A DNA stretch of 59,349 nt from an uncultured Christensenellaceae bacterium (GTDB lineage: Bacteria; Bacillota; Clostridia; Christensenellales; UBA1242). Every line of letters starts with the position of its first letter. The first letter of the stretch is position 1. The stretch is taken from positions 1 to 59,349 of the forward strand of contig CAJULT010000004.1 in the NCBI GenBank assembly GCA_910587225.1, read 5' to 3'. Below, one piece after another: positions 19,355 to 43,188 of this stretch. The notes beneath the pieces are model-generated. The model ran no database searches. It had not been told where the DNA came from and worked only from the letters and a program-made list of their open reading frames with translations. The position numbers and the translations under genes are program-made.

Positions 19355-19404
19355 AACACAATTATACCACTCTTTTTGTCTTTGTAAAAGTAAAAAACGC
19401 AAGC

Positions 19405-23330: not shown

Positions 23331-24041
23331 TCCCTCATCCGAAGTAAAGAACCTATCCATTCTTCCGCTCTCAATGCTGTAGATTCCGTCTATACCCACT
23401 ACATAGTGATCCATGAAACGCACACCTAGTGATTGAAAGAGGAATTTTATGTTGGTCGTTGCTTCTAAGTCTTGTTGGGATGGTTTTGCACGACCTCCCG
23501 GATGATTGTGTACTAGAAATACAAAGGCTGGATTGGTAGCGTTGATAAACTTTGTTATCTCTCTTTGGCTTATTCCTACCATACTTATGCTACCTTTGGC
23601 AAGTAGCCTTGCGGAGATTAATCTGAAACCTATATCTAAGGCGACTATGTATAGCTCTTCTGTTATCTTTATTCTTACAAGGTCTTCTACAAAGTCTAGA
23701 AGATCTATTGTATCATTCAGACATGGTCTTTCTTCATACGTGCTTTGCATGTAGTAATCAAATATCTCAGGAAATTTAGTTATCAGCGCTGCTGCGCGTT
23801 TACCTATTCCCCTTACCATCATCATGTCTTGAGGATCAGCGTTGAACACGCCGGCTACATTGCCATATCTGTCAAGTAGCCTATGTGCTAACGGATTAGT
23901 GTCACCTCTGGGAAAAACATACGTCAGGATAAACTCTAATGCTTGAACTTTACTTACATTACTAAGTCCTGCATTATCAACTAGCTCCAAGAGCCTTCCT
24001 CTATGCCCTTCGTGTATGTTCTTCTCATCTGTGTATTTCAT
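23322..24041 (-). CDS. radC: RadC-like JAB/MPN-domain protein
   Basis: HNHPGG (JAMM motif context VFLVHNHPGGRAKPSQQD), an N-terminal HhH-like region, and an AAAGGAGAAAACAA Shine-Dalgarno. Confidence 0.85.
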   Translation of the reverse strand: MKYTDEKNIHEGHRGRLLELVDNAGLSNVSKVQALEFILTYVFPRGDTNPLAHRLLDRYGNVAGVFNADPQDMMMVRGIGKRAAALITKFPEIFDYYMQSTYEERPCLNDTIDLLDFVEDLVRIKITEELYIVALDIGFRLISARLLAKGSISMVGISQREITKFINATNPAFVFLVHNHPGGRAKPSQQDLEATTNIKFLFQSLGVRFMDHYVVGIDGIYSIESGRMDRFFTSDEGLN

Positions 24042-24108
24042 TTGTTTTCTCCTTTTAGTTTAGATATTGCTACGCAATTTTTACTCATAACCATGCCGTA
24101 ACTTTTGA

Positions 24109-27100
24109 CTAACGCTTCATGTAAGCATTACATGCAGCAACGGTTGCTTGCATAGTTTTTAGGAAGTTAATCCATGCCTCTTCATGACATTCCCACACCA
24201 ATTTTCCGTTTGAGAAAGTCAAACGAATGTCCGCATCTTGAAAGCCACTCCATCGGTCTTTAACAAACGCCCCGATAGTAATTAACGCAAATCCATTATT
24301 CCCTTTTGCACCATTTTGTGAGCTTAACGCTCTAAATGTACCGCTATTTTCATTATTAACTTGTCCATTAGAGCCTTTCATAGGCACAACGTTTTCGTTT
24401 GGCTTAGGCAGTTTGTTTGTCCATTTGCGCTCATTCAACTTTTTCTGCACATTCTCAACTCGAGCCTCCATATTAATCCATCCTGATCCGTTATACTTAT
24501 CCCAGACATTCTGAAGTTCATCAGGCGTTACAATGTTTTCCGCATTTGCGCCGTCCTTTCCAGCTCCGCCGGAGCCGCCAACTCCTACAAAAGCATAGCC
24601 ACTTTTATCGTTTGATTGAAGAGTAATTCCACCTCCGCTAATACCAGCCGCTCCTCGCCATTTGGCTCTTTCTCCATTTCCAGCCATCAAAACAGCTTCA
24701 TTCTTTAGCGCGCTAGCATTAGCGACCAATTTATTATTTTCTTTCTCTGCTGCCACATATATATCAAAGACATTTATATCAGAACTATTCGCACTTCTAT
24801 CTTTTTCATAAATGCTTGCATAGTTGGTGATATTTTGCACTGTACCACTAGATAAAGTAACCATTACTCCTGATGCTTTATTGCCTGCAGTTACTCCATT
24901 AATTGATCCAAAAGTGTTAACTTTGTATAAAGTACCACTAGCATTTTCTGCCAAGATACTATAATTATAATTCTTATATTCGTACCAAATGTCAAATTGT
25001 GGTTTCTTAATAATAACATTACCTAAGAAGTCAACGTACTGGAATCCTCCAGTAATAGGTCTTGTATGTTTAATTGCCCTATATCTGCTTGCATCTAAGA
25101 CACCTACAACTTTTATATCCGAAAAATCTCCATTTATTTTTCTAAATAAAGAATTGAATATATTTACTGTGTTATTTCTAGAAACATAACTTAATGTATA
25201 TCCATTGCCATAAACATTATTGGACGCAACTATAGTATTTGAGCCAGTTAAGATACCTAGATTTATATTTCTATTTAATATAACTCCGGTTGTGGTAACG
25301 CTAGTGTTGTCCTCAATGTGAATTGTTAGCTCTGGTGTACCCTTCCAAGTCTCGCTTAATATATATGTATCATTCCCTTCTTGAATATATTTAGGTTTCT
25401 CTATCCCATATATTTCTGGACCTTCTATGTTAGGTTTGACAGGATTTTTACTAGGCTCATACCACTGCATCACATCATCTTCTTCTGTATTTGGCAATGA
25501 CACGTCTATCTCCTTCTCATATGATGCTTCGATGTCACTAACACTTACTTCTAGCTCTTTGCCAGTATAGTTTTTCAGATAATAAATTATTTCATCATTT
25601 CGCTCTTCTTTTTCTATCACTATTTCGCCTGCAATAAAATCTCCGTCATTAAACGTTATCGTTTGTCCGTCTACACTGACGACTGAATGGGTGTGAATCG
25701 TCTTGTTACCACTTGCATCCATGGTTGCTAGTAGAATATCCTTATAATACCAAACAGTATTAGAATCTTCTATTTTCACATCAAAAGATTTTTCAATATT
25801 ACCATCCAACCATTCTTTATAATACGAGCCATCAATGTTAATAGTAAATTTAATATTCTCACCAACAATAGCAGCATTAATTATTATTCCATCAGTCTTT
25901 GAATCTTTAGAAAGTTCTAAATGATCTTCGTTATCATAATCTGGGGTATCTTTTAAGACAATTATTTTTGAACCAAAACTGCTTGCACATGATATGGTAT
26001 CACTTATATTTAGATCTAAATTTAACTCTTCATTTCCCTTCCTGCTATAAATTACTCCATTAATATTTTCTAAAATATCATACTTGCTGTCATCATATGC
26101 GTTTTTACTTACTACATTAACATTTACTTTATCGCCTATATTTACTGTTAATATGAAGGTTTGTCTAGCGTAACTTTTTCCATCTCTCGTGTAGGCAACA
26201 TATTTATCACCTATTTTTGCTAATCCAACATTAGAATCATTTAATTTAGGTCTAATAACAACAGATGTCGCCCAAGACGCACCCGATATTTCAGCCTGAA
26301 TATTAGGATTTTTTGTATCCGCAGTAATAACTCTTTCCGCCGTTATTTTTGATATTTCTGTTTCAAAACTCAATTTTCTATCCAACGTGAATTCTGGAAT
26401 GCTACAACTTGAAGTCTGTTTAATTATGGCAATTCTATTGTAATATTTATTAATAAGTTCTTTTGCAAATTCGGCGCCAGTACCATCTTCACTTAATGCG
26501 CCTGACATTATCAATGTTTTTTCTTTGCTATATCCAAACAATGTCATGTGCACATGTTTAGAAGCCGCGTATGTCCACTCTTGAACACAAGGCACCCACT
26601 GCAAATTCTCATCTAGGAAACCATAAGGTTCGTATCTCCAATTATCTGGAAGTCCGTAATCGGCAAAATCAAACTTTCCATTTTCATAGCTCCCTAAAAC
26701 TGCTTCAATTTCATCATGGTCACCATAAACAACAATAAGTGCACTACCTGTAACATCTTTCAAATCAATTTCATAACTTAGTCCGTTTTTATCGATTGCA
26801 GATTTATTTCCATAGCCCGTTGTGGCGGTACCAACTTCAATATATCCGGAACCACTTGCATTGTTACCACTAAAGGTTGCACTATTTGCTGGTGCATTCG
26901 GGTTAGTTAATGGTGCACTCGCGATAGTTGTCGTAAAAGAATGTGTTCCTTCATACTTATACTTGGTACTAATTGTTGCATCATCGAAATCTTTTATATC
27001 TAACTTATAATCATTCTCAAAAACATTGAGTATTCCTCTTTCTGATTGCAATTTCGGAATATACATTAAACAATTTTTATCTTTGCTATAACCCAGATAA

Positions 27101-30100
27101 ACAGTTCGTGAATTTCCTTTCTGAGTCAATGTAAACTCAATTACTGGAATTTCTATTTCTTTTCCATCATTATCCGTTGTGATTGCAGTTATATAATTAT
27201 CTTGAGGTATCGCATTAATTTTATGCTCAATGTTATGAAGATATATTAATATTTTCCCATCACTATATTTATCATAATGCAATCCGAAGTTTTCGTCTCT
27301 CAATATGATTTCATGTTCTTTTGTATGACTGTAATCGACTTTAATGGCAGCCTTATTTGGATCAAATTGTTTATTCTCCGGAATAATTCTTAGCTCAAAT
27401 TTCAACGTTGCTCCTTGAGCTGAGAAACCCTGAATTCTCACCTCTGCGTCTTCGCAAGTAATAGTAAAATCTTGTAAATTCCACTCATTTGGATCATATG
27501 CAGGACAATCAAATTCTATCTCAGCTTGATAGCTTGTACCTTTTTCGAAATTCTCAAGAATGCTCTCTGCTGAACCATTAGTTAAATAATATGCTTCTCC
27601 CGCAATTTTGATATAGTTTTTACTCTCGTCCTGCTTAGAATTTGCGTTTGTTGAACCGATTATTTTTTTAAGAAGCTCCTCATTAGAGTTTGTTGTTTTT
27701 CCATATGTTGACTTGGCCAGATCTTGGTAATAACTGTCAGTTGTCCCACAATTCCAATTTTCATAGAAATCATATACATATTCCCAGCCTCCCCACAAAT
27801 CTCTCCACATGTTTGCATATAGAGTGCCATCATCATATCCACCGTTACCATTTGGAACTCTATCATGGCTTCCTATATCGCTATTTAACAAAGCTATGGC
27901 TGTTTGCAAATATCCACCAACTGGGCAACCATAGTTATCCCACGCCGTTGCATACATTTTATCTAAACCGCTATTATACTCATCAGTATTATATTTTTTA
28001 TGTGAAGGATAAGACCCGTTGACATGTTTTAGATCTTTATAATTAATTTCGAGATAAGAATACTGAGGACTAAAATATGTTTCATCTATTGTCTCTCGCA
28101 GTGCAGAATTCTCCATTAGATTCATCATTAGTAAATATTGTGACTGTAACATATGTTTAGTATAACTATGATGTGGCGCACCCCATGGCGCAGAATCAGC
28201 ATGCCAATTTCCGGTAGACATTCCCTTATTATACTCTGACAAATTGATTTTTCCTTCGTAAACCACTTTTCCATTAAGAAAAGCCGATCCATTGTTAATA
28301 ATATCGTAATTATAGTTGTAGTTGTTATAAACTTGTCCTTCTTGAACATATCCACAAATTCCACTAGCATAGACATTCTTTTTAGAAGTCTGTTCGATGA
28401 AAAATTTGTAACCACTTGTATCAAAATTGCGTTTTTCCTTTGCATCTTCATTTACGCCATTGTATATTGAATTGTTTTTGTAATATAATCCAGTTTTTTG
28501 AGTTATAGCGCCCCATCCCGTTGTTCCTAAGCCTTTTATTACTTTTGGGGAGTTTATGTTTTCTGAATAATCATAATCGTCAAAATAGTAGTCATAACTT
28601 AATTTTTGTTCAAACGTCCCATTCTGAGCAGCGGCTTCAACAGCCCCCTCGTTAATAGAATTTGAGATAGAACCGCCCTTATTTAATTGACCAACAATTC
28701 CGCCTGCGTATGACTGAGAAGTTACATTTTTATTGCCCGCCTTAATCATACCAGCGTTGTAGCAGTAGCTGATATTAAATTCGCTTTCATTTGCTCCATT
28801 AGCACCTAAAATACCACCGACTCTATTTGATCTCTTGGTTGTATCAGCATAACCTGCTAAAATAGCGTTAGTATTATATGAATATTTTATTTCAAATGGA
28901 TTAGTATTACCGCCTATATGTCCTATAAGTCCACCAACAGCTGTTATAGTAGTTCTTCCACCAAAAGTTATATTTTCTAGCACAATTGGAGCGTTGTTCA
29001 CACAATAGTTCATACTGCCGTTCGTTACGCTACCAACAATACCTCCGACACCACTAGCACTACTATTGGTTACGGTTATGGCCGTGTTATTTGTAATAGA
29101 AAAGAGGTTTACAATATGTCCATCTTTATTGTCGGAACTTCCTAACAATGCACCAACATTATATTCGAACTTATTGTCTGCATTATCGTTTCCAGTACCA
29201 TTTCCAACGTAACCATTGACTAAACTAGTTTTACCTAAAGTTCCACCCAATGTTATGTTGCTAAAATTGGTGTCTCCTCCCACTGTATTAGCTACAATTG
29301 CTGAGCCGTTCTCTATTTTAGCATCAAGGACATCGAAGTTGCGCAGGCCGCCGCTTACACTATGGAATAGAGTTGTATTTGCGTGATAAATTCTGTGTCC
29401 ATCACCATCTAAATCCCCACTAAATTGTTCACACGTTTTTTCGTTTGTTCCCAAATAATCTAGTTCTAAATCATTTGTGAGTAAGAAGTTTGATACTTGG
29501 TAACCATCAAACTTTTTATCACCCAATCGTGCATAAACTCCGGCATTTGGAATTCGATAATAATAGGCATCAATTCCGTCCGCAAGTATGAATCTCCCTG
29601 AAGTTAGATCTAATTCCGCTGCTAATTCGGACACTGGCACTTTATTATAGTCATAATATACAATTTCTTCACTTGGTTTATCTTGCTTGTCCCCACTAGT
29701 ATAATTCGTTGGGTTACCGTCTGAATCATGACAATATGTACTTCTTGCTTCGTCAATTTTATCCCGTTTCATATACGAAGTTTGGCGGAGATAGTAGAAG
29801 CCTTTATGTACTGGGTAACCGCTATTGAAAATAGGATTAGCTTCCCAATTATGAATATCGGTAGAGTCTTGCAACTTAATTATTTGATCAGTAGTCTTAT
29901 CAACTCCGCTATTATTGCTTGTATCTTTAGGAATGACCGCATAGCGATCATAGAAACCTGAAAATGTTGCATCATTAACTTTTTGATCACTGTCACAACT
30001 CCAGAATACAGAATTTGCGACTTGTGGAACTGCATTTTGATAATCGTTTGCATCAAGAGTTGTAGCTGTGTAGCAGTTGCGGACTGTTGCATTGATTGCA

Positions 30101-33100
30101 AATGCATCAAGCTGTGTATGTAAGTAACTCTTAACGCTACCCACAGCATAAGAGTTAGCAATAAGAACTTCCTTAACCCCTATCGTAATAGCTGCTGCCA
30201 TGCCGCCTGGACGCCTATCTTCCTGTGTCTCAGTATCCAAATTCCCAGATCTTGTTTCAATAGTCACATCGGTGTAGCAGTTGTTGATATAACCGCCTGC
30301 TGCATAACCGACAAGTCCGCCGATTTTGGCTTGAACAGTTCCACCAACTTCGATTTTGCCAGTTACGCCAACAGCGAATATTTGACCATTGGTCATCTGC
30401 TTTGCTAGCCCACCAACATACGAGCTAGTCGACCTTACATGCTCTTCAAGAATATTTGCATCTACTGTTAGTCCAGATACGCTTGAGAAATTTGTCATAT
30501 TTGAAATTAGATTTATCTCATGATTATCATTCTTATCTTCATTTTTATTTGTATAAGACAAAGTATTGGCATCACCTATAATTGCAACGTTATTGAGATT
30601 GCCAAACGACTTATTTTGATCAAGTGTAAAAGTGCCGTTATCAGTCTTTGGAATATAATAGGTAATTCCATTTGTAGAATGTTCTACCTTATCTTCAAAT
30701 GTGGTAAGTCCACTAGTTGTTATCTTGCTAGGGTTGAGCTTAGTGCCATCACCATTGTCATTTTCGTTAATATTGACAAGGTTTACGCCTTTAAACTTGC
30801 TTTGCATAGTAGTGTTAATATAGTAATCGCCATAACCAAAGCGGTCGCTTGTATTATATGCTGTTGCAAAGCCGGTATCGGTTGCGCAGTCGTCTGTAAG
30901 AAGGCAAACGCTATGGTTATAATAGTTAGTAGTTGGTATTCCTGTCCTGTTAACGCCAATAACCGCATTCATATTGTCAATGTTTGCCACTAAAGGTTTT
31001 TCATCGTGCAAAGTTGTAAGAATATAGTTCGTTGCAATAGATTTATTATTACTGTTGGTACTACTCCCCACCTCATTTGCAACTCCTTGCCCGATAAGAC
31101 CACCATAGCAGGAACCGTTGGCTAGTTGATTGTAAACAAACACATCACCATAGTTATAGTTCTTGGTAACTTCAGGAGTAATAGTAGAATTTGAAGATGT
31201 CCTTCCAATTGTTCCACCTATTGTCGCTTTTGGACTAGAAAGCACTTTAATTGCGCCGCTGAAGGAAGTATTTGAAATTGTAATTGTCTGATTGCTGTTA
31301 TCACCAATAGAAATATTTCCGACAATACCTGCCCCGTTGAAGTCTTTCGTACTCTGTGTATAAATTTGTCCACCAAAGCCAGACTCTGCCACATTAGACA
31401 TTCTAATTTCTAATTTTCCATTAATTGTTTCTGGTTGATTAGAGGTGCTTCCATCTTTGTTATAATCTGCGATCTCATAATTCCCTACAAAGCCACCTGC
31501 ATTGATTACCTTAGTGTCATCTTTAGCCGTCTTAGCTTTTGTTTTTGTAGTGGTTGTTGATGTGTAATCACCAACGCTTATAATTCCTTTGTATTTAATA
31601 TCGCCATTAATAGTTAAACTATTTGAGGCTCTACCTACAAGACCGCCGACATTAATATCGCCACTTGCCGCAACAACTATATCTCCAGTTGATATAATGT
31701 TGTTATTCTCGCCTGAAGTGCTAATAGTTGTATTTGCAGTGGTGTCGCCGAAATAGCTTCCAGCGTAGACCGTTGTTGCTGTGAGTGGGTAGAAAGTATA
31801 TCCTGCATCCTCTCTTGAGAGTGCACCATTACCTTTCTTGCCTGCTTCAGCAAGTTTGTTTTTGCCGTCGCTTTTTGTCTCCCAGCCACTAGTAGATAGC
31901 TCAGCTTGAATATTGTTGAGTGAGAACTCGACTGAGTTCTCTCCTGCAATTCCGCCCAAGCATGCGTCGCCTTTGACGGGATTTTGCACTCGGACATTAG
32001 TTGAGAACACATTACCTTTTGCGCCAGAAAGATTTTGCGCACCACCGGCATTGCCTCCTAGTTGACCGAAGAAGCCACCCGCATAAAGCTTCCCATTAAT
32101 TGTAGAAGAGATTGCGAAGTCAAAGTCAGCATGCGCCTCACTGCTAACAGCAATAGAATCAAGAGCTTTTACATTGCCAACATAACCGCCTATATAGGTA
32201 TTTGATGATTCACTGCCGTCAATTGAGTATTTTGCCTTAAAGGCTTTTGTTGGATCAGACTGACTTGTTCCATTTTTAAACTCATCTAACTGAAGTCTAA
32301 TTTCAGCGGTAGCATCATCATCTCTCTGTAATAAACCAAAGTATCCACCTACATATTGAGCTTCTTTATCAGTTGATGTTACTTTAATAAATGCACCATC
32401 ATCAGCAGCTTCGGTTCTTGTAACATCGATTCCATAAAGAACCATTGTTCCATCGCTTCTTCTTTGAGCTGCAGTTCCGCTTACAAGACCTACATTTGTT
32501 GCATTTTGTGCAGTTAAAATAGCATTTGGGGCATCCCCTGTATATTTAATGTGAAGACCTGAAATAGATACGGACTCAATTGTTGGAGCAAGTAATCCCA
32601 CATTTGCCCCTTTTCCACCGCTGCCTTGAAGCTGAATTCCGTCCGCGATTTCGAAAGTCACTTCTGATACGCGTCCTTGCGAATACGACTCATTGATTAA
32701 AGCACCCGCATTGTTTGCTTGCCCAAAGAGGTCTGCCTTAGAACCACTGCCTTGTTTTTCAAATAAGAAAGTCACATTAGAAATATTAACACTATTTGCT
32801 TGGCTGATTAGCGGTCTATCGAGGATAACGCGAGGATAACGCTCGCCATTTACTTTATTATCTTCTAATACACCAACAATCTTTCCTGCAAATTTTTCAA
32901 TTGGGTCGTGACCTTCTTGTGCGAGGTATTTTGCAAGGTTAATATCTGAATAACCGTCAATTACTTCGTCGATCTTACCTCTTACACGAATTTCGATTTT
33001 TGGATTCTTCTTAACTGCGCGGAACACCTTTTCAATGCTTGATGAATAAGCATCAAGGTAAATATATGAATTAGCTGCAATTGAGAATCTAATACTTGGA

Positions 33101-36100: not shown

Positions 36101-39100
36101 GTAGGGAATTTAGAAGTATTAATAGTTATCTGTCCTGCGTGATAGATGTTTACGCGAACGTTTTTGATTGTAGTATGCTCAAACACTTTGTTAAATAGTG
36201 CCAGAGTCACACTGCTTGAATTTGAATAATCTTTGAAAGATTTGATATTGATTGTGTATCCGTTTCCGTCAAAGCTGTCGATATATTGTGTGCTGATTGG
36301 GTCGTAATTTTCAAGGTCAATATCATTCATAAGAATGTAGTCTTGTTTTCTAAGGTTAGGCTCTTTCATTGCTTCAAAACGTGCTTGGTCTTGAACAATA
36401 AGTGGAGCTTCCTCAGTTGAATATGCCGCAACCTGAACAGAGAAGTAATAGTCACTTTCAAATACCTCTCCGCCAGCATAAACATTGCTTGAAAGTTTAA
36501 ATCTAAGCGGCTCGGATGTAAGTTTAGTTCCTGAAATAAGAATTGACTTTCCTTCATTGTCTACTGTTATCTTCAAATATCCGCCATAAGTAAAGCTTGA
36601 AGTGCCCTTTCCAGTTTCAATAGCTGGAAGACTTCGCCAGTTGTCATCTACTGTAGAGTAGTAAGACAGTCTTGAGTACAATGATCTTGCTGTATACTTT
36701 TTATCATCTGGTTCTCTATCATTATAGTTATAGTTAATATAGAACTTATTATCATTATCTATATAACTATCTTTACTGCGGAAGTCTTCAATGGCGTCTT
36801 TAATTTCTTTTACCGCATTTAAGCTTTCAGCATCGTTTGCGTCATAAGTATAACTTTCCGGTCTAATCGGTGTATCAAATTGAAGCGGTCTATTTACATC
36901 AAGGTATGCAGTAAAGATGTCATCCTCACCATCTCTTACCTTTACGTTTTTAATGTCAGGGTTGAACTTAACTAGACTTACCACCGCTGTTGCCGTTTTG
37001 GATTCTGCCGTGCCGTTAAGCACTCTTCTAGTTGTAATTGATAATTCAAACTTACCGCCCGCAGCCTGCGCAAGTACGGTTGCTCTCAATTTAGAAGTGT
37101 ATGTTTTAAGTCCGTTATTTGGGTTAACTTCTTCAAACCAGGTTGGCTCACCCGCATCGTTTCCGATTGTGATACCTCTAAGCGCACCAGTCTTAGTAAC
37201 CGTGTTGATATCAACATCATACTCGCTTGGTACGATAACTTGAATTTCGGCCTCTTCTCCATTGGCAAGCATTGCGGTTGAAGAGCCGTTTACAAGTATG
37301 CGAGGCTGAGTGAAATAACTTACAAGAAGTGGGAAGCTTGCCTTCTTAACTGCATCAGTTTGACTGCTGTCAAAGAAGGAAAGATTGAACTTAATTAAAA
37401 GGTCGGTCGGATTGTTTGGATCACTGGTTATATCCTTATTAATGAATATCTTGAAATAAAGATCTTCACTGTGATTATTGTTGCGAACTCTTATTCCATT
37501 CGGCTCTCTGCTTACTGTCGCTTTGCTGTCCGAATAGAAGTATCCTTTCTCTTCATCATATTGCATAAAATCTATAGCCACGGCTGTAGCTACCGTTGTG
37601 TTATCAAGGTATGTAAGAGTGAACGAGTCATAGTAAGCATATTTAGGGCTAACATGAACTTTCAATATACTACTGCTGCCCGGTGCAAGCACGCTAATCT
37701 TTGAGGTTTGGTCAGCCACATATACTGTGCGATACTTGCCTTCAATAGTAGTGTTTGCGACATAGGAATTTTCAATTTTAAAGTTTTCAAAGTCAACGTC
37801 TTTAAAGTCTTGCTTGTTTACGGTAAGGTTAATTGCATTGCTTGATACTTCTGAATCTGAAACAAGCTTAATGCGATATTCTTCCATCTTTGAAACAAGC
37901 GCTTTGTGAGCTTCTGCAACTGAAAAGGTGATTGAATATTCTTTTGTATACTTGCCGCCTACTAGCGAGCCTGCTTCGCCGCCGTTTTTGACATACTCTA
38001 AAACTGGTTCGTTGTTAAGATATACATATCCGCCTTCCACTTTAAGCTCGTCATAGCTGTCGCCATTTTTAAGCTCAACAACAGGTGTGATTGTATCATC
38101 TTTATCAGTTGTCACTAAGGTTGCATTTATAGTAACCGAAGTCATAGGAGTAATAGAAACATTCTCATGAGAAGCACCAACCGTAAGCGCTCCATTGAAA
38201 ACATTGATATTGTACTTCAACGTAAACTTTTCTGAAATGGCATTTTTGTATTCGCCAACAAGACCTGTAATTTCTACTGTTGCTGTGATTGAGTTATTTT
38301 CACTAGTGTCCGCCGAACTTTTAAATGAGTGAATATTGCGAGCAATCTCACTATGAGCAATTGCATTTGTATCTGTATCAGTTTTTACGCCAGTATGCGA
38401 CAAAGTGTAATCATTTGTAAGAAGAGTATATCTCCCCCCGCGAGTGCCAAGCACAATTGCAGCGTTTTCAAAGCTGTAAGTTACGCTCATGCTTTTGCCG
38501 CGTTGAAGCTGCGCAGTTGCACCACCCGCAATATTTACGCTACCACTAGCCACACTGCGAGTTGCAATTAATTTAGATAATGCGTTTACAACTTGCACCT
38601 CAATTGTCTTGGTGTTTGTGTAGTCATATTTAGATGAAAGAGTAAAGGTAGCTGAGCCCGTTCTGTTAATTATCACATTGTTACCATTTACGCTCACCGC
38701 ATTGTTTTTTGAAACTGCGGTAATAACAAGCTTAGCAGCAGCCTTATCATCAATGCCTAACAAGTCTTTAAGGTTGATTATATTCAAGCCGTCAAGCTCT
38801 CTTGCCGCCTGCGGATCATTTTGCTGCATAACATACTTATCAAGGTCAGAAACCTGATAGAAGAAGAGAACGCCATTTTCTTCACCCTCTGCCCTAACCG
38901 CATGGTAAAGTCCGCGATTATTTACAACCTCGCCTTTGTCGCCGCCAAGCATATATCCGCTAACATCACTTAGAGGTAACTCTTGGTGGAAGTCTTTGAG
39001 ATAAGGTTTTTTAAAGTTGATTGATTCGTCAAAGTCATCGCCTTTTGAAACCCATGAATTGTCAAAAGCTTCTTCGGAGTCCGTTTGCGTTCCTTCATGA

Positions 39101-42100
39101 TTAAATCTTACGCTTTCAATTGCCCCTGAATTATAGAATGTTAGGTATCCATTTTTCAAAATCACATTTTCATTATGCGCACCAACAACCGTAGGTTTAT
39201 TTACAACCGCAAAAGAATTTGTAATTACAAGGTTGCCCGTGTCACTATTTTTACCTACAAAACCTATAAGCGCACCTGCATTACTTGAACCTGTAATATG
39301 TGATTTGCCTTCCGTCATAGCGTAATCATAAGCGTATATGTTTTTAATTGATACTGGATTAGTTGAATTTACTTGTATCATTCCAACCACGCCGCCAACA
39401 TAAGTGCCAGTTAATGTGTTTGCTTCATCCTCAAAATTGTAAATCTCAAAGCGAGCACCATCAATTGAGCCACTATCCATTTGACCAACTATACCGCCGA
39501 CATCACTACTACCATTTATTGTTGCACCAAGCACTGCAACATTTTTAAGTGTGCCGCTGTTCTGCCCAACAATACCACCAGCAACGCCAGTAGCAGTAAG
39601 TGTGCTCGAAGAGTATGTGCCATTATTTACATAAACATCAACTGTTACATTTTCAATTGTTCCGCTATTAGTGTTTGCGACAAAGCCTTTGCCTGTTACA
39701 TTTCCTGCAATAGTTAAGTCTTTGATTTTACCTTTGTTTTCGTTTACAAGTGTTTGTCCAGTCAGCGTAATCGTTACGCTTAGGTCATTTCCAATAATTC
39801 CGCCAGTTGCGCCAATTTCTGCAAAACTTGTCCAGTTATTTAGAGTAATATTGTTCATTACTCGGTAGAAATTGTTTGTTCCACGTGTTGCAATTTCTCT
39901 AAACTGCTCATCAGTATAAATGCGGTATGCCTGCTCTTCCTTTGCACCGTCAGCAACAACCACCTTGATTTTAACCAAAACATCTTTAAATTCAACCTTG
40001 TTTCCAGCACTATAGAAATAGCCTTTATCAACTAAAATATCATAGTAGAGTGCAAGATCGTTTCGGTTAAAGCTATCTGTTTTCTGTTGTTTGTTTTCAT
40101 CATAGTAGTAATAAATTTTCCCATTATTTACAGCGTCCTTCGGGAAGAGATATAGGTAGCCATTCATACCACTTGTTGCAGCTAAGGTAACCTGCGCTCC
40201 GCCTTCAACCTCAGTAGCTGCAAACGGCTCTTTTTCTTGAAGTGCGCCTTTATCGTCTGTTGCGATATAGTCAATATGGGTATTTTTAGCGTCAGCAGGA
40301 GATGAGGTAAGAACGATTATTTGATTTTTTGTTTCACTACCTATTTCAAAGTACAAATCTTCATTTGCACCGTGCTCCCAAACAAGCTTTTCAATTCTTT
40401 TCGCGCTGATAACTTTTACAGAAAGTATTTCGCTAAGATAAATATTGTCGACCTTGTCAGTATTGTGATAAGCAATAGTTAGATAATTGTCTGTGATGAA
40501 AGCTTCACCATAAGTATCAATACCTGTGATAATAAATGAGATTGCTGTATTATTGGCATTTGGCTTAACATCGGTGATTGAGTAGTAAGGTAAATTCACT
40601 TCACCACCGTCATTATTTGTCCAAACAACCACATGATTGCTTACCTTTCCTATAACACTTGGTCCTAAACGGTTTGAATAAAATGTAAAGTCCTCAAGCT
40701 TAAAATCTGAAATTGGTGTTCTGCCAAGTGTGATAGTCACGACCTGTGAAGTTTGTGAGCTGTCGTCAACAGAACCTCTTGCATAAACCTCCACTCTTGG
40801 AGTACTTATTGTGAAACTAGTTGGCGCTTCATAGACTTCTACCAAAATAAATCTAACATAGGTCACTTTTTCCCCGTCAGCACCAAGACCAGTGAATTTA
40901 ACTATAAGATAGGTCTTTCCAACTTTCCTAGCCGTAAATCCATCAGTGGTAGCAGAAATTATTCCGCTTGCATCCTCTGAGTTTTTATAAATGGTGCGAA
41001 GGTCTATAACGTCTAAATTAGCGTCATCTATGTCATAGTACGCAAATGAAAGTTTAGCTTCTGCATGCTTGCCAAATTTCTCATTAGTGATAAAATCTAA
41101 TGCAACGAATCCGCCATTCCTTACAAGAAGATCTGAAACGCTACTTGTAGCATCACCTTTTTCGATTAATTCTCCATTGCTATCTAAGTAAATTTTATTA
41201 GTACTATCTGGAGTATTTGTAACGCTATTATTAAGTACAGTATCCACACCCACCCTTGCGTCTGTAAGAGGAAGGAAGATAGAAACGGCATAAAACTTCT
41301 CAAATGTCAGCCCATTCTTATGTCTAATAGTATAAAATCCGTCAATTGTTTCCCCAATCGCACTGTCAAGTAATTTAAACTCAACACTAAATTTAACTGT
41401 TGGCAACTGACCATTGTCCCCAGCAGCAAAACTTACAGGAATTATTTCTCCTATTGAGTAACCTTCAGGTTCAACCTCATTCCCATTTTTGTCCACAGCA
41501 ACAACTTCAAGACCGTTGATAGTAGATTGACCTTTAAGAGTAAAGGTTTTTGTTACGCTGGTTGGAGTTTGATGTGATGCAAGTTTGACATCGCCAGTCT
41601 CACCTTGTTCCATCTCAATATCCATACTTGTAGTTGAACGATAAACGTCTACCTTAAAGGTTTCTCTTACATCTTCATTATCATATGAAATAAAGGTAAC
41701 ATCAATTCCCTTAATAAATTGTTGAAGCGCGCTGTCCGCCTTTATATAAATAGTCTGTCCTGAAGGTAGTAAATCTTCACTTGTTGTAGTAAAGATTCCA
41801 TCTTCTGATTTTGTTAATGAAACTTCAACCGGTTTATTACCTTTGCGGTATTGGAATGAAAGTATGTTATTTTCCGGCTTAGCACTACTAGAAGTGTAGT
41901 TCACAATAATTTTATATTTACCTGAAGCGTTCTCAACATTATTCGGTCCGAATTTGACAGTATATTCGGCGCCTAAATTATTCTTGTAGGAAGTATAAAT
42001 TTCATTATTAGCTACAGAGGCAAGCGCCCCGTTTTCGTTGCGCACTTCAATCTCATCAACCATAAGTCCGCAAATGACATTAAATTCTACCGAGCTTGCC

Positions 42101-43110
42101 ACGTAGTCATAATCTTTATAGCCTAACTGAAATCGCACCTTGTAAGTATCATTGACCTTTTTTAAACCTTTGACCTCGAAAATGTTATAATCCTCGCCTG
42201 AAGGGCCACTACTTGAAATTTGCAAAATGGAGAGTTCGTTTGATGGGCTATTTGCGTCTATCACTTGTCCATCGATAACGGGTTTAATATCTAAAGCGTT
42301 ATTTTTGTTTTTTGGCACAAAGATATAGGCTTTGTTTTTGTCTTCAATGTTAGGCACAAGATTCACCTCTGTAGCTTTACTTACGCCGCCCTCTATTGAT
42401 GTAATGCCATAGCCATACTGAAGTTTTAAGTTTTTCGAATCAATCGGATCAAGTACTCCAAAGGTGACTTCTTCAGTTTCAAGCCCACGATCGCCCTTAG
42501 CTTTTAAAGTGATTTTGCTTCCGTCATAATCCCCAGGAACAGTAATAACATTTCCATTTATTTTTATTCCTTCGGCATTGACATTATCGCCAAGCACCCA
42601 CTCAATATTTGTTCTTGAATTTTGATTTGGATAGATATTTAAAAGTTCGTTAATTTTAAGTGTATTGTCCTGACCTTTTACGAGGAATCTTTTTCTTAAG
42701 TCAGACGCATCACTCTTCCATTCAATCGCTGTCGCATTACTATAAACCGTAACCGGTACAGTAACACTAATGTTGTGGTCATAGTCGGCTGTAATGACAA
42801 CGTTTGCAGTTCCCTCTTCCTTACCTGCCGCCTTAATGGTAACCAAGTTTCTTCCATTAGCGCGATTATAAGTGTAGTCTTCCACAATGACCATGTTCGT
42901 GTTAGAAGAAGTAGCAGTTACTGTTCCGCCCGAGATTCCATTCACAACAACAGAAACAGTCGTGCTTTGTGACGACTCATCGTTTAAACAAATTTCCTTG
43001 TAGCTGTCGCCTATAATTTCAAGTGAAACATTAGGCTTGCCGCAAGCGGTAAAAATACCACCTCCAACCAGCAAGATACAACTTAGAATTCCTAGCCAGA
43101 ACTTTTTCAT
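24109..43110 (-). CDS. giant (6,333 aa) lipoprotein-anchored surface protein with Ig-like arrays, multiple GLUG-type beta-helix modules and a C-terminal Gly-rich domain
   Basis: Single uninterrupted ORF with a GAGGAGG Shine-Dalgarno. Signal peptide with lipobox MKKFWLGILSCILLVGGGIFTAC. Big_2-like domains (e.g. ATSSNTNMVIVED...VTIKAAGKEEGTANVVITA). Repeated module entries such as DYILMNDIDLENYDPISTQYIDSFDGNGYTI, followed by many xGG(I/L/V)VG rungs. Confidence 0.9.
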   Translation of the reverse strand: MKKFWLGILSCILLVGGGIFTACGKPNVSLEIIGDSYKEICLNDESSQSTTVSVVVNGISGGTVTATSSNTNMVIVEDYTYNRANGRNLVTIKAAGKEEGTANVVITADYDHNISVTVPVTVYSNATAIEWKSDASDLRKRFLVKGQDNTLKINELLNIYPNQNSRTNIEWVLGDNVNAEGIKINGNVITVPGDYDGSKITLKAKGDRGLETEEVTFGVLDPIDSKNLKLQYGYGITSIEGGVSKATEVNLVPNIEDKNKAYIFVPKNKNNALDIKPVIDGQVIDANSPSNELSILQISSSGPSGEDYNIFEVKGLKKVNDTYKVRFQLGYKDYDYVASSVEFNVICGLMVDEIEVRNENGALASVANNEIYTSYKNNLGAEYTVKFGPNNVENASGKYKIIVNYTSSSAKPENNILSFQYRKGNKPVEVSLTKSEDGIFTTTSEDLLPSGQTIYIKADSALQQFIKGIDVTFISYDNEDVRETFKVDVYRSTTSMDIEMEQGETGDVKLASHQTPTSVTKTFTLKGQSTINGLEVVAVDKNGNEVEPEGYSIGEIIPVSFAAGDNGQLPTVKFSVEFKLLDSAIGETIDGFYTIRHKNGLTFEKFYAVSIFLPLTDARVGVDTVLNNSVTNTPDSTNKIYLDSNGELIEKGDATSSVSDLLVRNGGFVALDFITNEKFGKHAEAKLSFAYYDIDDANLDVIDLRTIYKNSEDASGIISATTDGFTARKVGKTYLIVKFTGLGADGEKVTYVRFILVEVYEAPTSFTISTPRVEVYARGSVDDSSQTSQVVTITLGRTPISDFKLEDFTFYSNRLGPSVIGKVSNHVVVWTNNDGGEVNLPYYSITDVKPNANNTAISFIITGIDTYGEAFITDNYLTIAYHNTDKVDNIYLSEILSVKVISAKRIEKLVWEHGANEDLYFEIGSETKNQIIVLTSSPADAKNTHIDYIATDDKGALQEKEPFAATEVEGGAQVTLAATSGMNGYLYLFPKDAVNNGKIYYYYDENKQQKTDSFNRNDLALYYDILVDKGYFYSAGNKVEFKDVLVKIKVVVADGAKEEQAYRIYTDEQFREIATRGTNNFYRVMNNITLNNWTSFAEIGATGGIIGNDLSVTITLTGQTLVNENKGKIKDLTIAGNVTGKGFVANTNSGTIENVTVDVYVNNGTYSSSTLTATGVAGGIVGQNSGTLKNVAVLGATINGSSDVGGIVGQMDSGSIDGARFEIYNFEDEANTLTGTYVGGVVGMIQVNSTNPVSIKNIYAYDYAMTEGKSHITGSSNAGALIGFVGKNSDTGNLVITNSFAVVNKPTVVGAHNENVILKNGYLTFYNSGAIESVRFNHEGTQTDSEEAFDNSWVSKGDDFDESINFKKPYLKDFHQELPLSDVSGYMLGGDKGEVVNNRGLYHAVRAEGEENGVLFFYQVSDLDKYVMQQNDPQAARELDGLNIINLKDLLGIDDKAAAKLVITAVSKNNAVSVNGNNVIINRTGSATFTLSSKYDYTNTKTIEVQVVNALSKLIATRSVASGSVNIAGGATAQLQRGKSMSVTYSFENAAIVLGTRGGRYTLLTNDYTLSHTGVKTDTDTNAIAHSEIARNIHSFKSSADTSENNSITATVEITGLVGEYKNAISEKFTLKYNINVFNGALTVGASHENVSITPMTSVTINATLVTTDKDDTITPVVELKNGDSYDELKVEGGYVYLNNEPVLEYVKNGGEAGSLVGGKYTKEYSITFSVAEAHKALVSKMEEYRIKLVSDSEVSSNAINLTVNKQDFKDVDFENFKIENSYVANTTIEGKYRTVYVADQTSKISVLAPGSSSILKVHVSPKYAYYDSFTLTYLDNTTVATAVAIDFMQYDEEKGYFYSDSKATVSREPNGIRVRNNNHSEDLYFKIFINKDITSDPNNPTDLLIKFNLSFFDSSQTDAVKKASFPLLVSYFTQPRILVNGSSTAMLANGEEAEIQVIVPSEYDVDINTVTKTGALRGITIGNDAGEPTWFEEVNPNNGLKTYTSKLRATVLAQAAGGKFELSITTRRVLNGTAESKTATAVVSLVKFNPDIKNVKVRDGEDDIFTAYLDVNRPLQFDTPIRPESYTYDANDAESLNAVKEIKDAIEDFRSKDSYIDNDNKFYINYNYNDREPDDKKYTARSLYSRLSYYSTVDDNWRSLPAIETGKGTSSFTYGGYLKITVDNEGKSILISGTKLTSEPLRFKLSSNVYAGGEVFESDYYFSVQVAAYSTEEAPLIVQDQARFEAMKEPNLRKQDYILMNDIDLENYDPISTQYIDSFDGNGYTINIKSFKDYSNSSSVTLALFNKVFEHTTIKNVRVNIYHAGQITINTSKFPTMSIRVAGFAISNEGVITNCEVVAFKPNENDITVAKPGINVRFVNSNGASGETSIIGTSIQSEIAGFVLDNSGSVTNSRVGGDSIKIYGQVEKDEEGNPTGRVKASDLSLPTFNIHGQGNIAGFALANGKNIASSFVKNVGISNVSSDSAYYAAGFVGSNNGTIVASYVEGAKELNPKDAYCRLGSSIISKMGTSVGFVYENKQGKTIKDCYSNILIANDEIGQSSQLASGFVYINDGALTNCLSLSQVAALKYSQMNFSGLNERGDLTSTIGTYTNCYYYSIDDMSDSLPTEEQYSTGAIQLKELDDVNYFYGFSFASGDSGLDGVWRYDLGNKIITLVEPNYETYANRYYKSDANDEEKYTVLPSIIEYGNRKPIEARYGSKDNPILIRTALEFTDVTGNSQFNSIKDGNFTDDEIKGTYRVVNDLEFSELTSDTTLTAQLPSSKKAFSGILFGNGFTFKDISISLPDEEINKDLAAAYGVFASIENGIVLNLNLTVKQVVNNEACFVGALAGFVKGNSENGGRRASLANINVSFNDNASVVGLNMVGGLVGGVLGDVKIKNDEVTNPNVVAARYVVGDATKLISEAQVGKLRESLYSRLKSSIITASDKNFIRGQLEDHSFAGGVIGYADIFTSEEVDIHYFSYVSEMKVSNYDITKLRVSGTATVRGHVAGGVVGLTGFQTDVKDAGLILLGTTTSHITATRLYAGGVIGQSFGALTQLFSQYDATTQKDIENNIGNYYSGSADKRGNTDIFVSTDLNDKQEAIGGLVGFVGSGHISISYSKLNVVSLSAGYAGGLIGHINASGAVPYSAGESAVSYLRLHEVYATGDVRAKTAVGAAGGIVGRMESRTAFEAVNQANFFSFTDYEKGGRLENVTKDTFTNLKVYSVVGSLDDVDLAVFTQIKEKSSDETTTRAADNEAWQSTVGTVKKYKSTEENILMFPAESGTVKKQGIHQTFDMPDITEFKQASEYSELTHAAFLARDFWLADDWYHPSEYLYPSIRFSIAANSYIYLDAYSSSIEKVFRAVKKNPKIEIRVRGKIDEVIDGYSDINLAKYLAQEGHDPIEKFAGKIVGVLEDNKVNGERYPRVILDRPLISQANSVNISNVTFLFEKQGSGSKADLFGQANNAGALINESYSQGRVSEVTFEIADGIQLQGSGGKGANVGLLAPTIESVSISGLHIKYTGDAPNAILTAQNATNVGLVSGTAAQRRSDGTMVLYGIDVTRTEAADDGAFIKVTSTDKEAQYVGGYFGLLQRDDDATAEIRLQLDEFKNGTSQSDPTKAFKAKYSIDGSESSNTYIGGYVGNVKALDSIAVSSEAHADFDFAISSTINGKLYAGGFFGQLGGNAGGAQNLSGAKGNVFSTNVRVQNPVKGDACLGGIAGENSVEFSLNNIQAELSTSGWETKSDGKNKLAEAGKKGNGALSREDAGYTFYPLTATTVYAGSYFGDTTANTTISTSGENNNIISTGDIVVAASGDINVGGLVGRASNSLTINGDIKYKGIISVGDYTSTTTTKTKAKTAKDDTKVINAGGFVGNYEIADYNKDGSTSNQPETINGKLEIRMSNVAESGFGGQIYTQSTKDFNGAGIVGNISIGDNSNQTITISNTSFSGAIKVLSSPKATIGGTIGRTSSNSTITPEVTKNYNYGDVFVYNQLANGSCYGGLIGQGVANEVGSSTNSNNKSIATNYILTTLHDEKPLVANIDNMNAVIGVNRTGIPTTNYYNHSVCLLTDDCATDTGFATAYNTSDRFGYGDYYINTTMQSKFKGVNLVNINENDNGDGTKLNPSKITTSGLTTFEDKVEHSTNGITYYIPKTDNGTFTLDQNKSFGNLNNVAIIGDANTLSYTNKNEDKNDNHEINLISNMTNFSSVSGLTVDANILEEHVRSTSSYVGGLAKQMTNGQIFAVGVTGKIEVGGTVQAKIGGLVGYAAGGYINNCYTDVTIETRSGNLDTETQEDRRPGGMAAAITIGVKEVLIANSYAVGSVKSYLHTQLDAFAINATVRNCYTATTLDANDYQNAVPQVANSVFWSCDSDQKVNDATFSGFYDRYAVIPKDTSNNSGVDKTTDQIIKLQDSTDIHNWEANPIFNSGYPVHKGFYYLRQTSYMKRDKIDEARSTYCHDSDGNPTNYTSGDKQDKPSEEIVYYDYNKVPVSELAAELDLTSGRFILADGIDAYYYRIPNAGVYARLGDKKFDGYQVSNFLLTNDLELDYLGTNEKTCEQFSGDLDGDGHRIYHANTTLFHSVSGGLRNFDVLDAKIENGSAIVANTVGGDTNFSNITLGGTLGKTSLVNGYVGNGTGNDNADNKFEYNVGALLGSSDNKDGHIVNLFSITNNTAITVTNSSASGVGGIVGSVTNGSMNYCVNNAPIVLENITFGGRTTITAVGGLIGHIGGNTNPFEIKYSYNTNAILAGYADTTKRSNRVGGILGANGANESEFNISYCYNAGMIKAGNKNVTSQSYAGGIVGQLNKGGSISNSINEGAVEAAAQNGTFEQKLSYDYYFDDYDYSENINSPKVIKGLGTTGWGAITQKTGLYYKNNSIYNGVNEDAKEKRNFDTSGYKFFIEQTSKKNVYASGICGYVQEGQVYNNYNYNYDIINNGSAFLNGKVVYEGKINLSEYNKGMSTGNWHADSAPWGAPHHSYTKHMLQSQYLLMMNLMENSALRETIDETYFSPQYSYLEINYKDLKHVNGSYPSHKKYNTDEYNSGLDKMYATAWDNYGCPVGGYLQTAIALLNSDIGSHDRVPNGNGGYDDGTLYANMWRDLWGGWEYVYDFYENWNCGTTDSYYQDLAKSTYGKTTNSNEELLKKIIGSTNANSKQDESKNYIKIAGEAYYLTNGSAESILENFEKGTSYQAEIEFDCPAYDPNEWNLQDFTITCEDAEVRIQGFSAQGATLKFELRIIPENKQFDPNKAAIKVDYSHTKEHEIILRDENFGLHYDKYSDGKILIYLHNIEHKINAIPQDNYITAITTDNDGKEIEIPVIEFTLTQKGNSRTVYLGYSKDKNCLMYIPKLQSERGILNVFENDYKLDIKDFDDATISTKYKYEGTHSFTTTIASAPLTNPNAPANSATFSGNNASGSGYIEVGTATTGYGNKSAIDKNGLSYEIDLKDVTGSALIVVYGDHDEIEAVLGSYENGKFDFADYGLPDNWRYEPYGFLDENLQWVPCVQEWTYAASKHVHMTLFGYSKEKTLIMSGALSEDGTGAEFAKELINKYYNRIAIIKQTSSCSIPEFTLDRKLSFETEISKITAERVITADTKNPNIQAEISGASWATSVVIRPKLNDSNVGLAKIGDKYVAYTRDGKSYARQTFILTVNIGDKVNVNVVSKNAYDDSKYDILENINGVIYSRKGNEELNLDLNISDTISCASSFGSKIIVLKDTPDYDNEDHLELSKDSKTDGIIINAAIVGENIKFTINIDGSYYKEWLDGNIEKSFDVKIEDSNTVWYYKDILLATMDASGNKTIHTHSVVSVDGQTITFNDGDFIAGEIVIEKEERNDEIIYYLKNYTGKELEVSVSDIEASYEKEIDVSLPNTEEDDVMQWYEPSKNPVKPNIEGPEIYGIEKPKYIQEGNDTYILSETWKGTPELTIHIEDNTSVTTTGVILNRNINLGILTGSNTIVASNNVYGNGYTLSYVSRNNTVNIFNSLFRKINGDFSDIKVVGVLDASRYRAIKHTRPITGGFQYVDFLGNVIIKKPQFDIWYEYKNYNYSILAENASGTLYKVNTFGSINGVTAGNKASGVMVTLSSGTVQNITNYASIYEKDRSANSSDINVFDIYVAAEKENNKLVANASALKNEAVLMAGNGERAKWRGAAGISGGGITLQSNDKSGYAFVGVGGSGGAGKDGANAENIVTPDELQNVWDKYNGSGWINMEARVENVQKKLNERKWTNKLPKPNENVVPMKGSNGQVNNENSGTFRALSSQNGAKGNNGFALITIGAFVKDRWSGFQDADIRLTFSNGKLVWECHEEAWINFLKTMQATVAACNAYMKR

Positions 43111-43159
43111 AATTCCTCCTCGTTTGCACTAAATGCAAAATGAAATTATCCTTGTAAAA

Positions 43160-43188
43160 ATTATAATAACAGCTGCGAAAATTGTCAA
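43160..43188 (-). promoter_or_regulatory. perfect consensus sigma-A promoter TTGACA-17-TATAAT for the giant gene
   Basis: On the minus strand, TTGACA is at 43188-43183, the 17-nt spacer at 43182-43166, and TATAAT at 43165-43160, about 50 nt upstream of the ATG at 43110. Confidence 0.75.

Follow-up and report, generated by a model that had tools for sequence, protein, structure and literature searches.

What does a bacterium build with a single gene of 19 kb, and which part of the product does the work? The question is raised by a 59,349-nucleotide stretch of DNA from an uncultured Christensenellaceae bacterium (assembly GCA_910587225.1, contig CAJULT010000004.1, positions 1 to 59,349 of the forward strand), referred to here as the window. 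Near its middle lies one gene for a protein of 6,333 amino acids (aa), termed the giant gene and the giant. The evidence describes a conserved family of giant proteins with a lipoprotein signal, an order of predicted beta-helix modules that is kept across the family, and a C-terminal end that diverges between lineages and varies between strains. With moderate confidence, the giant is read as an adhesin-like fibre that is lipid-anchored at its N-terminus and carries a variable binding head at its distal end. The giant gene and its expression signals are as follows.

24109..43110, (-) strand: complete giant gene, 6,333 codons plus stop
43115..43121, (-) strand: Shine-Dalgarno sequence GAGGAGG, 4 nt 5' of the ATG
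43160..43188, (-) strand: predicted sigma-70-type promoter TTGACA-17-TATAAT, consensus match 12/12

Translation of the window gives an open reading frame (ORF) of 6,333 aa with an ATG start and zero internal stops. The region upstream contains one 12/12 promoter match only (TTGACA-17-TATAAT at 43188-43160), and the 274-bp spacer has a G+C content of 17%. The uninterrupted frame, the promoter, the GAGGAGG sequence and the AT-rich upstream region are thus all as described in the first-pass annotation of this DNA, and the five peptides quoted there as landmarks lie where they had been placed. The G+C content of the giant gene is 38.3%, that of the window 38.5%. No terminator-like site was detected in the 67 nt between the giant stop codon and radC, also as proposed earlier, and the first such site lies 3' of radC, at 23253-23232.

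Further assemblies with the giant gene were found through an exact-protein look-up of its two flanking genes, and all of them appear to be short-read. The complete gene is present in an ENA 178-kb scaffold (6,334 aa) and, at 6,333 aa, in GCA_948915875.1, GCA_948561125.1 and Logan ERR4079130, and five further assemblies hold copies that are truncated by contig ends. All copies within the species share at least 99.7% DNA identity. The 90%-identity protein cluster of the giant consists of three protein alleles, whose sole length difference is an in-frame 3-nt insertion. A repeat search of the window found no DNA repeats inside the gene and BLASTP self-comparison at E<1e-3 found no internal protein repeats, so repeat collapse is very unlikely. 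Assembly collapse or an interrupted frame had been named as one danger to the initial reading; with no repeats, and with an intact frame in at least four other assemblies and in ~15 orthologues, the giant ORF is confirmed as a genuine gene and not an artefact.

43042..43110, (-) strand: lipoprotein signal peptide, aa 1-23, with lipobox F-T-A-C and Cys23 the predicted lipidated residue by a PROSITE-type rule

The N-terminus of the giant, MKKFWLGILSCILLVGGGIFTAC followed by G, satisfies a PROSITE-type lipobox rule at Cys23. The rule specifies [LVI..][AST..][GAS]C at positions 15-35, after an n-region with K/R and an uncharged h-region. The lipobox Cys is kept in 17 of 17 family N-termini, where 15 conform to the strict rule and two have a canonical LVGC. 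Apart from the signal peptide, the giant has no hydrophobic segment. No LPXTG sortase anchor (pattern LPXT[GAN]) occurs in the chain, and no SLH or choline/cell-wall-binding family is found among its Pfam hits. Pattern, hydrophobicity and Pfam therefore agree with the original view that an N-terminal lipoprotein signal is present and that no other anchor is visible. By sequence pattern, the giant is a bacterial lipoprotein, and Cys23 would carry the lipid. The scanned ORFs of the window include no recognisable lgt or lspA.

Behind the membrane-proximal region, the giant carries a series of modules of the GLUG type, for which profile matches are given with the independent E-value (i-E).

39076..39930, (-) strand: predicted GLUG beta-helix module A, aa 1061-1345; profile match aa 1062-1298, i-E 3e-13
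35011..36405, (-) strand: module B, aa 2236-2700, with AGF-type rungs; profile match aa 2249-2588, i-E 3e-4
33490..34902, (-) strand: predicted GLUG beta-helix module C, aa 2737-3207; matches within aa 2751-3190, i-E 3e-9 and 1e-12
30997..32853, (-) strand: module D, aa 3420-4038, with a long run of GG-x-x-G rungs; four weak matches, aa 3440-4022, i-E 1.5e-4 to 0.02
30016..30708, (-) strand: predicted GLUG beta-helix module E, aa 4135-4365; match aa 4182-4334, i-E 5e-11
28609..29562, (-) strand: GLUG beta-helix module F, aa 4517-4834; Pfam Glug and a confident AlphaFold2 (AF2) beta-helix model
24673..25320, (-) strand: possible module G, aa 5931-6146; weak match aa 6049-6103, i-E 0.009, with the entry-like motif VYGNGYTL

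Pfam was run on the giant as ten overlapping 700-aa tiles. Family PF07581 (Glug) reaches 31.5 bits (gathering threshold 20.5) with an E of 1.9e-7, in three stretches around aa 4723-4750, and exceeds the threshold in module F only. Modules A-E and G were detected with a profile built from relatives of module F, and A-E are reached by this purpose-built profile alone. No other Pfam family appears in the giant at E<=1, an NCBIfam search gave nothing meaningful, and a PDB sequence search gave no match. An orthologue described below (L012) has Glug at the position of module A, at 21.3 bits. When the giant is compared with itself by phmmer, matches are found among the GLUG modules only. The chain has 24 occurrences of the rung motif GG[ILVFY][ILVFA]G, where shuffled sequence would give 0.5. 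The first-pass annotation had counted at least five or six GLUG modules continuing as runs of xGG(I/L/V)VG rungs. The rung runs are upheld by the motif count, and the modules now stand at six (A-F) with a possible seventh.

The fold is clearest in module F. Aligned with its relatives, it shows the canonical layout, with an entry part (Y-x-I…NDIDL…F-x-G-x-xDGxGxxI) that leads into rungs built as xGGIxG…I…CYN-x-G. An AF2 model based on a 17-sequence alignment has a predicted template modelling score (pTM) of 0.78, with aa 4516-4832 confident and all-beta, and with 189 residues at a predicted local distance difference test (pLDDT) value of at least 90. In a Foldseek search of the PDB with this model, the top match is 3N6Z (BACOVA_03286, 'putative IgA1 protease'; E 3.9e-7, probability 1.0). 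The IgA1 metalloproteases of S. pneumoniae and G. haemolysans match at E 1e-4 to 6e-4 and the serine-rich repeat protein (SRRP) adhesin of L. reuteri at E 6e-3, and pectate-lyase-type beta-helices appear at E >=0.5, which is not significant. The NTD2 domain of the IgA1 protease is a beta-helix (PMC9637739). As modelled, module F is a right-handed parallel beta-helix of the GLUG type, and the beta-helix fold proposed for these segments is borne out here by both model confidence and structural match. Modules A-E are, by their profile matches, paralogues of module F and would be beta-helices by paralogy; module G is doubtful. A phage origin of the giant was considered and rejected, as viral contigs gave weak generic GLUG-type matches only, and PHROGs gave one match, of unknown function, on the entry motif of module B.

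The stretches between the helices make up much of the stalk, as the chain from the anchor to the end of module F is called here.

39931..43041, (-) strand: membrane-proximal region, aa 24-1060, no Pfam match in the giant; aa ~660-741 align to Big_2 in L105 and L106
36406..39075, (-) strand: inter-module region, aa 1346-2235; Big_2 in two of 16 orthologues

Tandem Big_2-type Ig domains had been proposed for aa ~26-1060, and the searches do not bear this claim out in that form. No Ig-like family, including PF02368 (Big_2), is found in the giant at E<=1, and Big_2 is seen only in a few distant orthologues, in two aligned regions. It exceeds the threshold in the two most distant ones, L105 (27.8 bits) and L106 (25.2 bits), where it aligns to aa ~660-741, and in two of 16 orthologues within the region aligned to aa 1346-2235. 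Repeated units, the mark of a tandem-repeat Ig-like extender, were found by neither BLASTP, hhalign nor the DNA repeat search; hhalign with two domain profiles, run over the first 4,900 aa, recovers the query domains only. Profiles of the family alignment (aa 24-1065, 1346-2235 and 2236-2725) gave nothing significant against the PDB, the best match being a filamin-type Ig domain at E 0.48. Of the further Ig-like stretches suggested between the modules, none is detected in the giant, but for some domains the suggestion stays plausible through Big_2 of the orthologues. To judge from these alignments, some stalk domains are probably diverged Big_2-type sandwiches.

Related genomes place the giant in a family, which is marked by a neighbouring gene.

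43385..44092, (+) strand: PP-loop ATPase gene (TtcA/TilS-like), divergent from the giant gene, syntenic neighbour of the family

Among GTDB species representatives, the PP-loop protein has its best relative at 69% identity ('uncultured Clostridia bacterium E14__bin218'), followed by Lachnospiraceae at ~50-54%. Because the best relative is only 69% identical, the lineage of the giant belongs to poorly sampled Clostridia. The PP-loop gene of locus L012 (69% identical) adjoins, in the same divergent layout, an ORF starting MKKFFVGLVSIFFLLGATILTAC. This L012 giant is collinear with aa 1-3206 at 32-35% identity, up to the end of the fetched flank. A metagenome scan seeded with the module B alignment found loci L092-L108, which have open frames of 3,300 to >6,100 aa, most of them cut by the 10-kb flank, and each with a lipoprotein signal. 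Their collinearity with the giant extends from aa 1 to ~4,835, at 25-32% identity. At least 15 collinear giant lipoproteins are thus found in other metagenomes. Pairwise identity within the family is 22-96%, with module B the best conserved part (27-45%).

In L012, L092, L096, L102 and L106, the giant gene has the PP-loop gene as its divergent neighbour, at 52-69% identity. Comparison in related genomes, which had been put forward as a check on the initial reading, therefore shows a conserved, syntenic family with collinear module order. Because the family is collinear and the PP-loop neighbour conserved, the giant gene is old in the clade and vertically inherited, and it evolves much faster than the PP-loop gene beside it. 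The Lachnospiraceae and other loci that were fetched with the PP-loop query all lack the giant gene. A scan of GTDB-representative contigs with aa 2567-3766 gave no match, from which absence in these representatives cannot be claimed because the exact 8-mer patterns are too strict at 25-35% identity. Word-index protein searches gave at most one weak match (P0001); as they also missed the giant itself, which the searched collection contains, they count as uninformative and not as a sign that homologues are absent. In L102, a second large lipoprotein gene (16958-19934) follows 30 nt after the 4,855-aa giant, starts MKKKIWSVLILLMALVSCAGIFSAC and has a similar first domain; it is a tandem paralogue of at least 992 aa before it runs off the locus.

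The likeness within the family ends shortly after module F.

24112..28608, (-) strand: C-terminal region, aa 4835-6333, lineage-specific; no homologue beyond aa ~4980; holds 21 of 24 strain substitutions plus an in-frame indel

Up to aa ~4,900, the aligned family members share 20-43% identity with the giant; beyond that point the value is 14-18%, taken as background. Compared by phmmer with every family member, aa 4836-6333 gave no match. When 1.84 billion representative proteins were searched exhaustively by phmmer with aa 4420-5619, the giant itself and 22 weak matches came back, all 22 within aa ~4510-4977 and nothing beyond. The members without a C-terminal match include the complete ORFs L101 and L102 (4,847 and 4,855 aa), L106 and L105, and also frames running >1,000 aa past the last alignable position. 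Independent pairs of orthologues show the same trend as a gradient from the N-terminus to the C-terminus: identity declines from ~80% to ~50% between L095 and L099, from ~65% to ~25% between L095 and L100, and from ~50% to ~20% between L097 and L100. Judged by these alignments, the end with the lipobox is conserved and the far end is the variable one. The stretch after module F is rich in Tyr (11.6%) and Trp (2.3%). No HEXXH motif occurs in the giant, and the Pfam, NCBIfam and PDB sequence searches found no peptidase, lyase or glycosidase family. Identity as an M26 IgA1-specific metallopeptidase was rejected, there being neither HEXXH nor an M26 domain.

Variation between strains is concentrated at the same end.

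27829..28461, (-) strand: substitution cluster 1, aa 4884-5094, nine changes, within the Tyr/Trp-rich stretch
24166..24660, (-) strand: substitution cluster 2, aa 6151-6315, eight changes against allele P0025 and three against P0024

The window overlaps the ENA allele for 20.7 kb, including 9.9 kb of the giant gene. The two differ by 28 substitutions, 24 of which fall within the giant gene, 6.5-fold denser than in the flank (Fisher 7e-5). All 24 are nonsynonymous, where nonsynonymous sites make up 78.4% (P=0.003 under neutrality), and nine are changes to Asp or Glu. Their placement is uneven: aa 4836-6333 hold 21 of them and aa 3025-4835 only three (Fisher 3e-5). A third allele, P0024, has five residue differences from the window, three of them in the last 150 aa, and at site 6288 three alleles are found, S, V and G. 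The N-terminal 3,240 aa are near-invariant over seven assemblies, with a shared V3175A and, in one metagenome-assembled genome, I1608V plus a three-codon cluster at 1811-1813. There is a single extra DNA allele of the C-terminal half because contigs break in or beside radC. A diversity-generating retroelement as the source of variation was rejected: the 59-kb window holds no repeat pair, no reverse transcriptase is found in the 20 ORFs scanned, and substitutions of all types spread over 9 kb also contradict it.

These features suggest how the giant may work as a lipid-anchored, adhesin-like fibre, a reading in which we infer lipidation, surface exposure, extended shape and binding function. 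The Sec pathway would export the giant, Cys23 would be lipid-modified, and the N-terminus would be held in the outer leaflet of the cytoplasmic membrane. The stalk of ~4,800 residues would have a fixed architecture, in which small unmatched domains alternate with six right-handed GLUG beta-helix modules, and it would span the wall and project outward from the cell. With ~2,400 aa of beta-helix at ~4.8 Å per ~23-aa rung, plus the intervening domains, the fibre length may be roughly 100-200 nm. The distal ~1,450-1,500 residues would form the head, lineage-specific and under diversifying selection, which most likely binds an external ligand such as a host or dietary glycan, mucus or another cell. 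The head is taken as the functional end because the N-to-C divergence gradient points to the C-terminal ~1,500 aa.

Several points weigh against this reading. In most family loci, the fetched sequence stops 10 kb downstream of module B, short of the true C-terminus, and for this reason the statement that the head has no homologue is firm for L101/L102, L105 and L106 only. No binding domain, lectin or carbohydrate-binding module family was found in the head by Pfam, NCBIfam, PDB or PHROGs searches, and a single-sequence AF2 prediction of aa 5134-6333 gave a pLDDT of 29.7, so the model was not used. For the C-terminal half, the selection signal comes mainly from a comparison of two alleles, and nonsynonymous changes are in any case over-represented in polymorphism of very recent origin. 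Between the beta-helices, most of the stalk is without a family or structure match in Pfam and PDB profile searches, and the 'small domains' and 'extended' shape of the stalk are assumptions. A bolder form of the fibre reading goes further and seems unlikely. In this form, the giant would be a lipid-anchored 'spear' and a lineage-defining surface organelle, with a ~4,800-aa stalk of non-repeated domains in frozen order and a ~1,500-aa head that is exchanged or rewritten from one species to the next and under positive selection within each. The head, with no relatives in 1.8 billion representative proteins, would possibly be a new class of receptor-binding or effector region serving host attachment, inter-bacterial contact or phage decoy.

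Among the rivals, an envelope scaffold or protective coat survives best and is a minor possibility. The giant would here form a dense brush without a specific ligand, which keeps the cell surface spaced, organised or shielded (phage, bile and immune effectors are examples of what it might guard against), and its variable end would simply be antigenically exposed. The structural evidence (lipobox, module F fold and the other modules) is equal for coat and adhesin, and a perfect consensus promoter fits an abundant structural protein. Frequent charge-changing substitutions (9 of 24 to Asp or Glu) would suit antigenic or phage-receptor escape as well as ligand tuning. A non-repetitive, Tyr/Trp-rich head of 1,500 aa is, however, more elaborate than a passive tip requires. 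The present data do not separate the coat from the adhesin.

An enzymatic role is doubtful. As a surface-tethered enzyme carrier, the giant would use its GLUG helices to scaffold or gate a catalytic domain, as in the M26 IgA1 proteases, and the C-terminal region or one of the helices (pectate-lyase-like) would degrade a host or dietary polymer. The closest structural matches of module F are indeed beta-helix domains of IgA1 metalloproteases, with the helices of polysaccharide lyases and hydrolases lower and non-significant, and the composition after module F (Tyr 11.6%, Trp 2.3%) is unusual. Against this stand the missing HEXXH motif and M26 domain and the negative Pfam, NCBIfam and PDB searches for peptidase, lyase or glycosidase families. 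Catalytic domains are also usually conserved, yet the C-terminal region has no homologue even within the family.

Still less probable is a contact-dependent effector of the polymorphic-toxin type, CdiA-like, with a conserved beta-helical stalk and an exchangeable toxic C-terminus. A conserved N-terminal stalk joined to a non-homologous C-terminus is the hallmark layout of such toxins. No small immunity-like ORF comes next, however; the following genes are radC here, the second large lipoprotein gene in L102 and rpoB/rpoC in L105. The variable part spans ~1,500 aa instead of 100-300 aa, variation within the species consists of scattered point substitutions and not cassette replacement, and no toxin family was matched in Pfam or NCBIfam. 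An N-terminal lipid anchor, moreover, is not known from polymorphic-toxin systems. An assembly artefact or decaying pseudogene, to which the seemingly short-read metagenomes and the different gene upstream of radC in the GCA_948598985.1 strain might point, is already effectively refuted by the intact ORF in at least four other assemblies with three protein alleles, the lack of collapsible repeats, the single indel that keeps the frame, and ~15 orthologues elsewhere with open frames of 3,300 to >6,100 aa.

Known systems share parts of this architecture. The module F model superposes on the GLUG domain of M26 IgA1 metalloproteases (S. pneumoniae ZmpA/IgA1P NTD2, PDB 6XJA/6XJB; G. haemolysans 7UVK) and of BACOVA_03286 (3N6Z), with E 3.9e-7 to 6e-4, probability 1.0 and a template modelling (TM) score of ~0.45-0.55. 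Module F and the GLUG domains of IgA1P and 3N6Z share the entry motif (…NDxxL…F.G.xDGxGxxI) and the xGGxxG rungs that come after it. Unlike the M26 IgA1 proteases, the giant lacks HEXXH, the M26 domain, G5 and LPXTG, has six or seven helices per chain and not one, and carries them in a lipoprotein and not in a sortase substrate. The binding region of the L. reuteri SRRP adhesins (PDB 5NXK/5NY0) is likewise a right-handed beta-solenoid, in a Gram-positive gut adhesin. Its match is weaker (E 6e-3), the giant is without serine-rich repeats and LPXTG, and no accessory Sec (aSec) locus was seen in the window.

Giant adhesins such as the RTX adhesins MpIBP and LapA and S. aureus Ebh are built as an anchor, an extender and a distal ligand-binding region, with extenders of near-identical tandem Ig-like repeats. 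The giant would resemble them in its envelope-fixed end, its very long non-catalytic extender and its functional or variable far end, as suggested by the lipobox and the divergence gradient. It differs in its stalk, where no repeats are detected and every single position is conserved through the family. It differs too in its anchor and its route of secretion, being a lipoprotein where the others have a type 1 secretion system retention module or a C-terminal transmembrane segment; inspection by eye showed no RTX repeats. Other giant proteins from gut Clostridia have been described at 10,000 to >30,000 aa, with repetitive RCC1, beta-propeller, dockerin or leucine-rich repeat domains (West-Roberts et al. 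2023, bioRxiv 10.1101/2023.11.21.568195). Those proteins are likewise very large, predicted to be of surface type and encoded by Clostridia of gut metagenomes, but they are larger and have other repeats, and GLUG and lipoproteins are unmentioned there. No description of the giant family was found in the literature searched, where only two papers name the GLUG motif, and the giants are an undescribed family within the familiar class of large bacterial surface fibres.

Downstream of the giant gene, the window carries radC, uvrA and uvrB, and upstream the PP-loop ATPase gene. Also present are an alpha/beta hydrolase gene, yetF, spoIIE, tilS, metG and an HtrA-like protease gene. Judged by gene content, the locus is chromosomal, in a spore-forming Firmicute. 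No phage, reverse transcriptase or secretion-system genes were recognised among the window ORFs scanned.

23322..24041, (-) strand: radC (JAB domain), 67 nt downstream of the giant gene with no terminator between; link to the giant, including the co-transcription proposed earlier, uncertain

The radC junction varies between strains. In GCA_948598985.1 (L002, contig CAPDMB010000005.1, positions 1-1849), which is 99.8% identical to the window over 5.8 kb, the genes ahead of radC are not the giant gene but a cysK-like gene and a gene for a 385-aa collagen-like protein (Gly-X-Thr repeat, BclA-like) with its own terminator and promoter. Identity to the window begins exactly at the radC ribosome-binding site (junction 24042-24056). 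There are 13 synonymous differences in radC in L002 and eight in L003, and zero in the next ~5 kb. These differences look like a recombination tract that ends at the 24042-24056 junction, and the synonymous-only variation is uninformative on selection because the loci were retrieved by identical protein. Many metagenome contigs of the species end inside or beside radC, which suggests a branch of the assembly graph caused by strain heterogeneity.

Elsewhere in the window, a large serine recombinase gene (Resolvase, Recombinase and Zn-ribbon) at 1763-3424 on the (-) strand overlaps at its 3' end a tRNA-Leu(CAG) at 1772-1857 on the (+) strand, an arrangement typical of an element integrated at a tRNA site. 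A TetR-family gene follows it. Near the recombinase, at 6583-6629 on the (+) strand, lies the Rfam ssNA-helicase RNA motif (RF03070; 44.9 bits, gathering score 41.5). A 247-aa ORF at 44169-44912 on the (-) strand has a Pro/Ser/Thr-rich low-complexity middle and no Pfam match, and it stands beside the PP-loop gene in each assembly of the species that extends to this position.

Few genes of uncultured gut anaerobes are as poorly understood as those for giant surface proteins. No concept is overturned here, as large beta-helix and Ig-type fibres are familiar bacterial surface proteins. The analysis adds the family and its synteny, the gradient from N- to C-terminus, and the finding that polymorphism in the head is exclusively nonsynonymous. 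The family can now be mapped, with an anchor, six predicted beta-helix modules, and a gradient pointing to the C-terminal ~1,500 aa. The 19-kb gene takes up about one third of a 59-kb contig, is intact in every assembly that spans it and keeps its architecture in at least 15 related lineages, a clear cellular investment. With its nonsynonymous-only strain polymorphism, the giant gene is a candidate marker, in this lineage, of selection that host or phage would drive.

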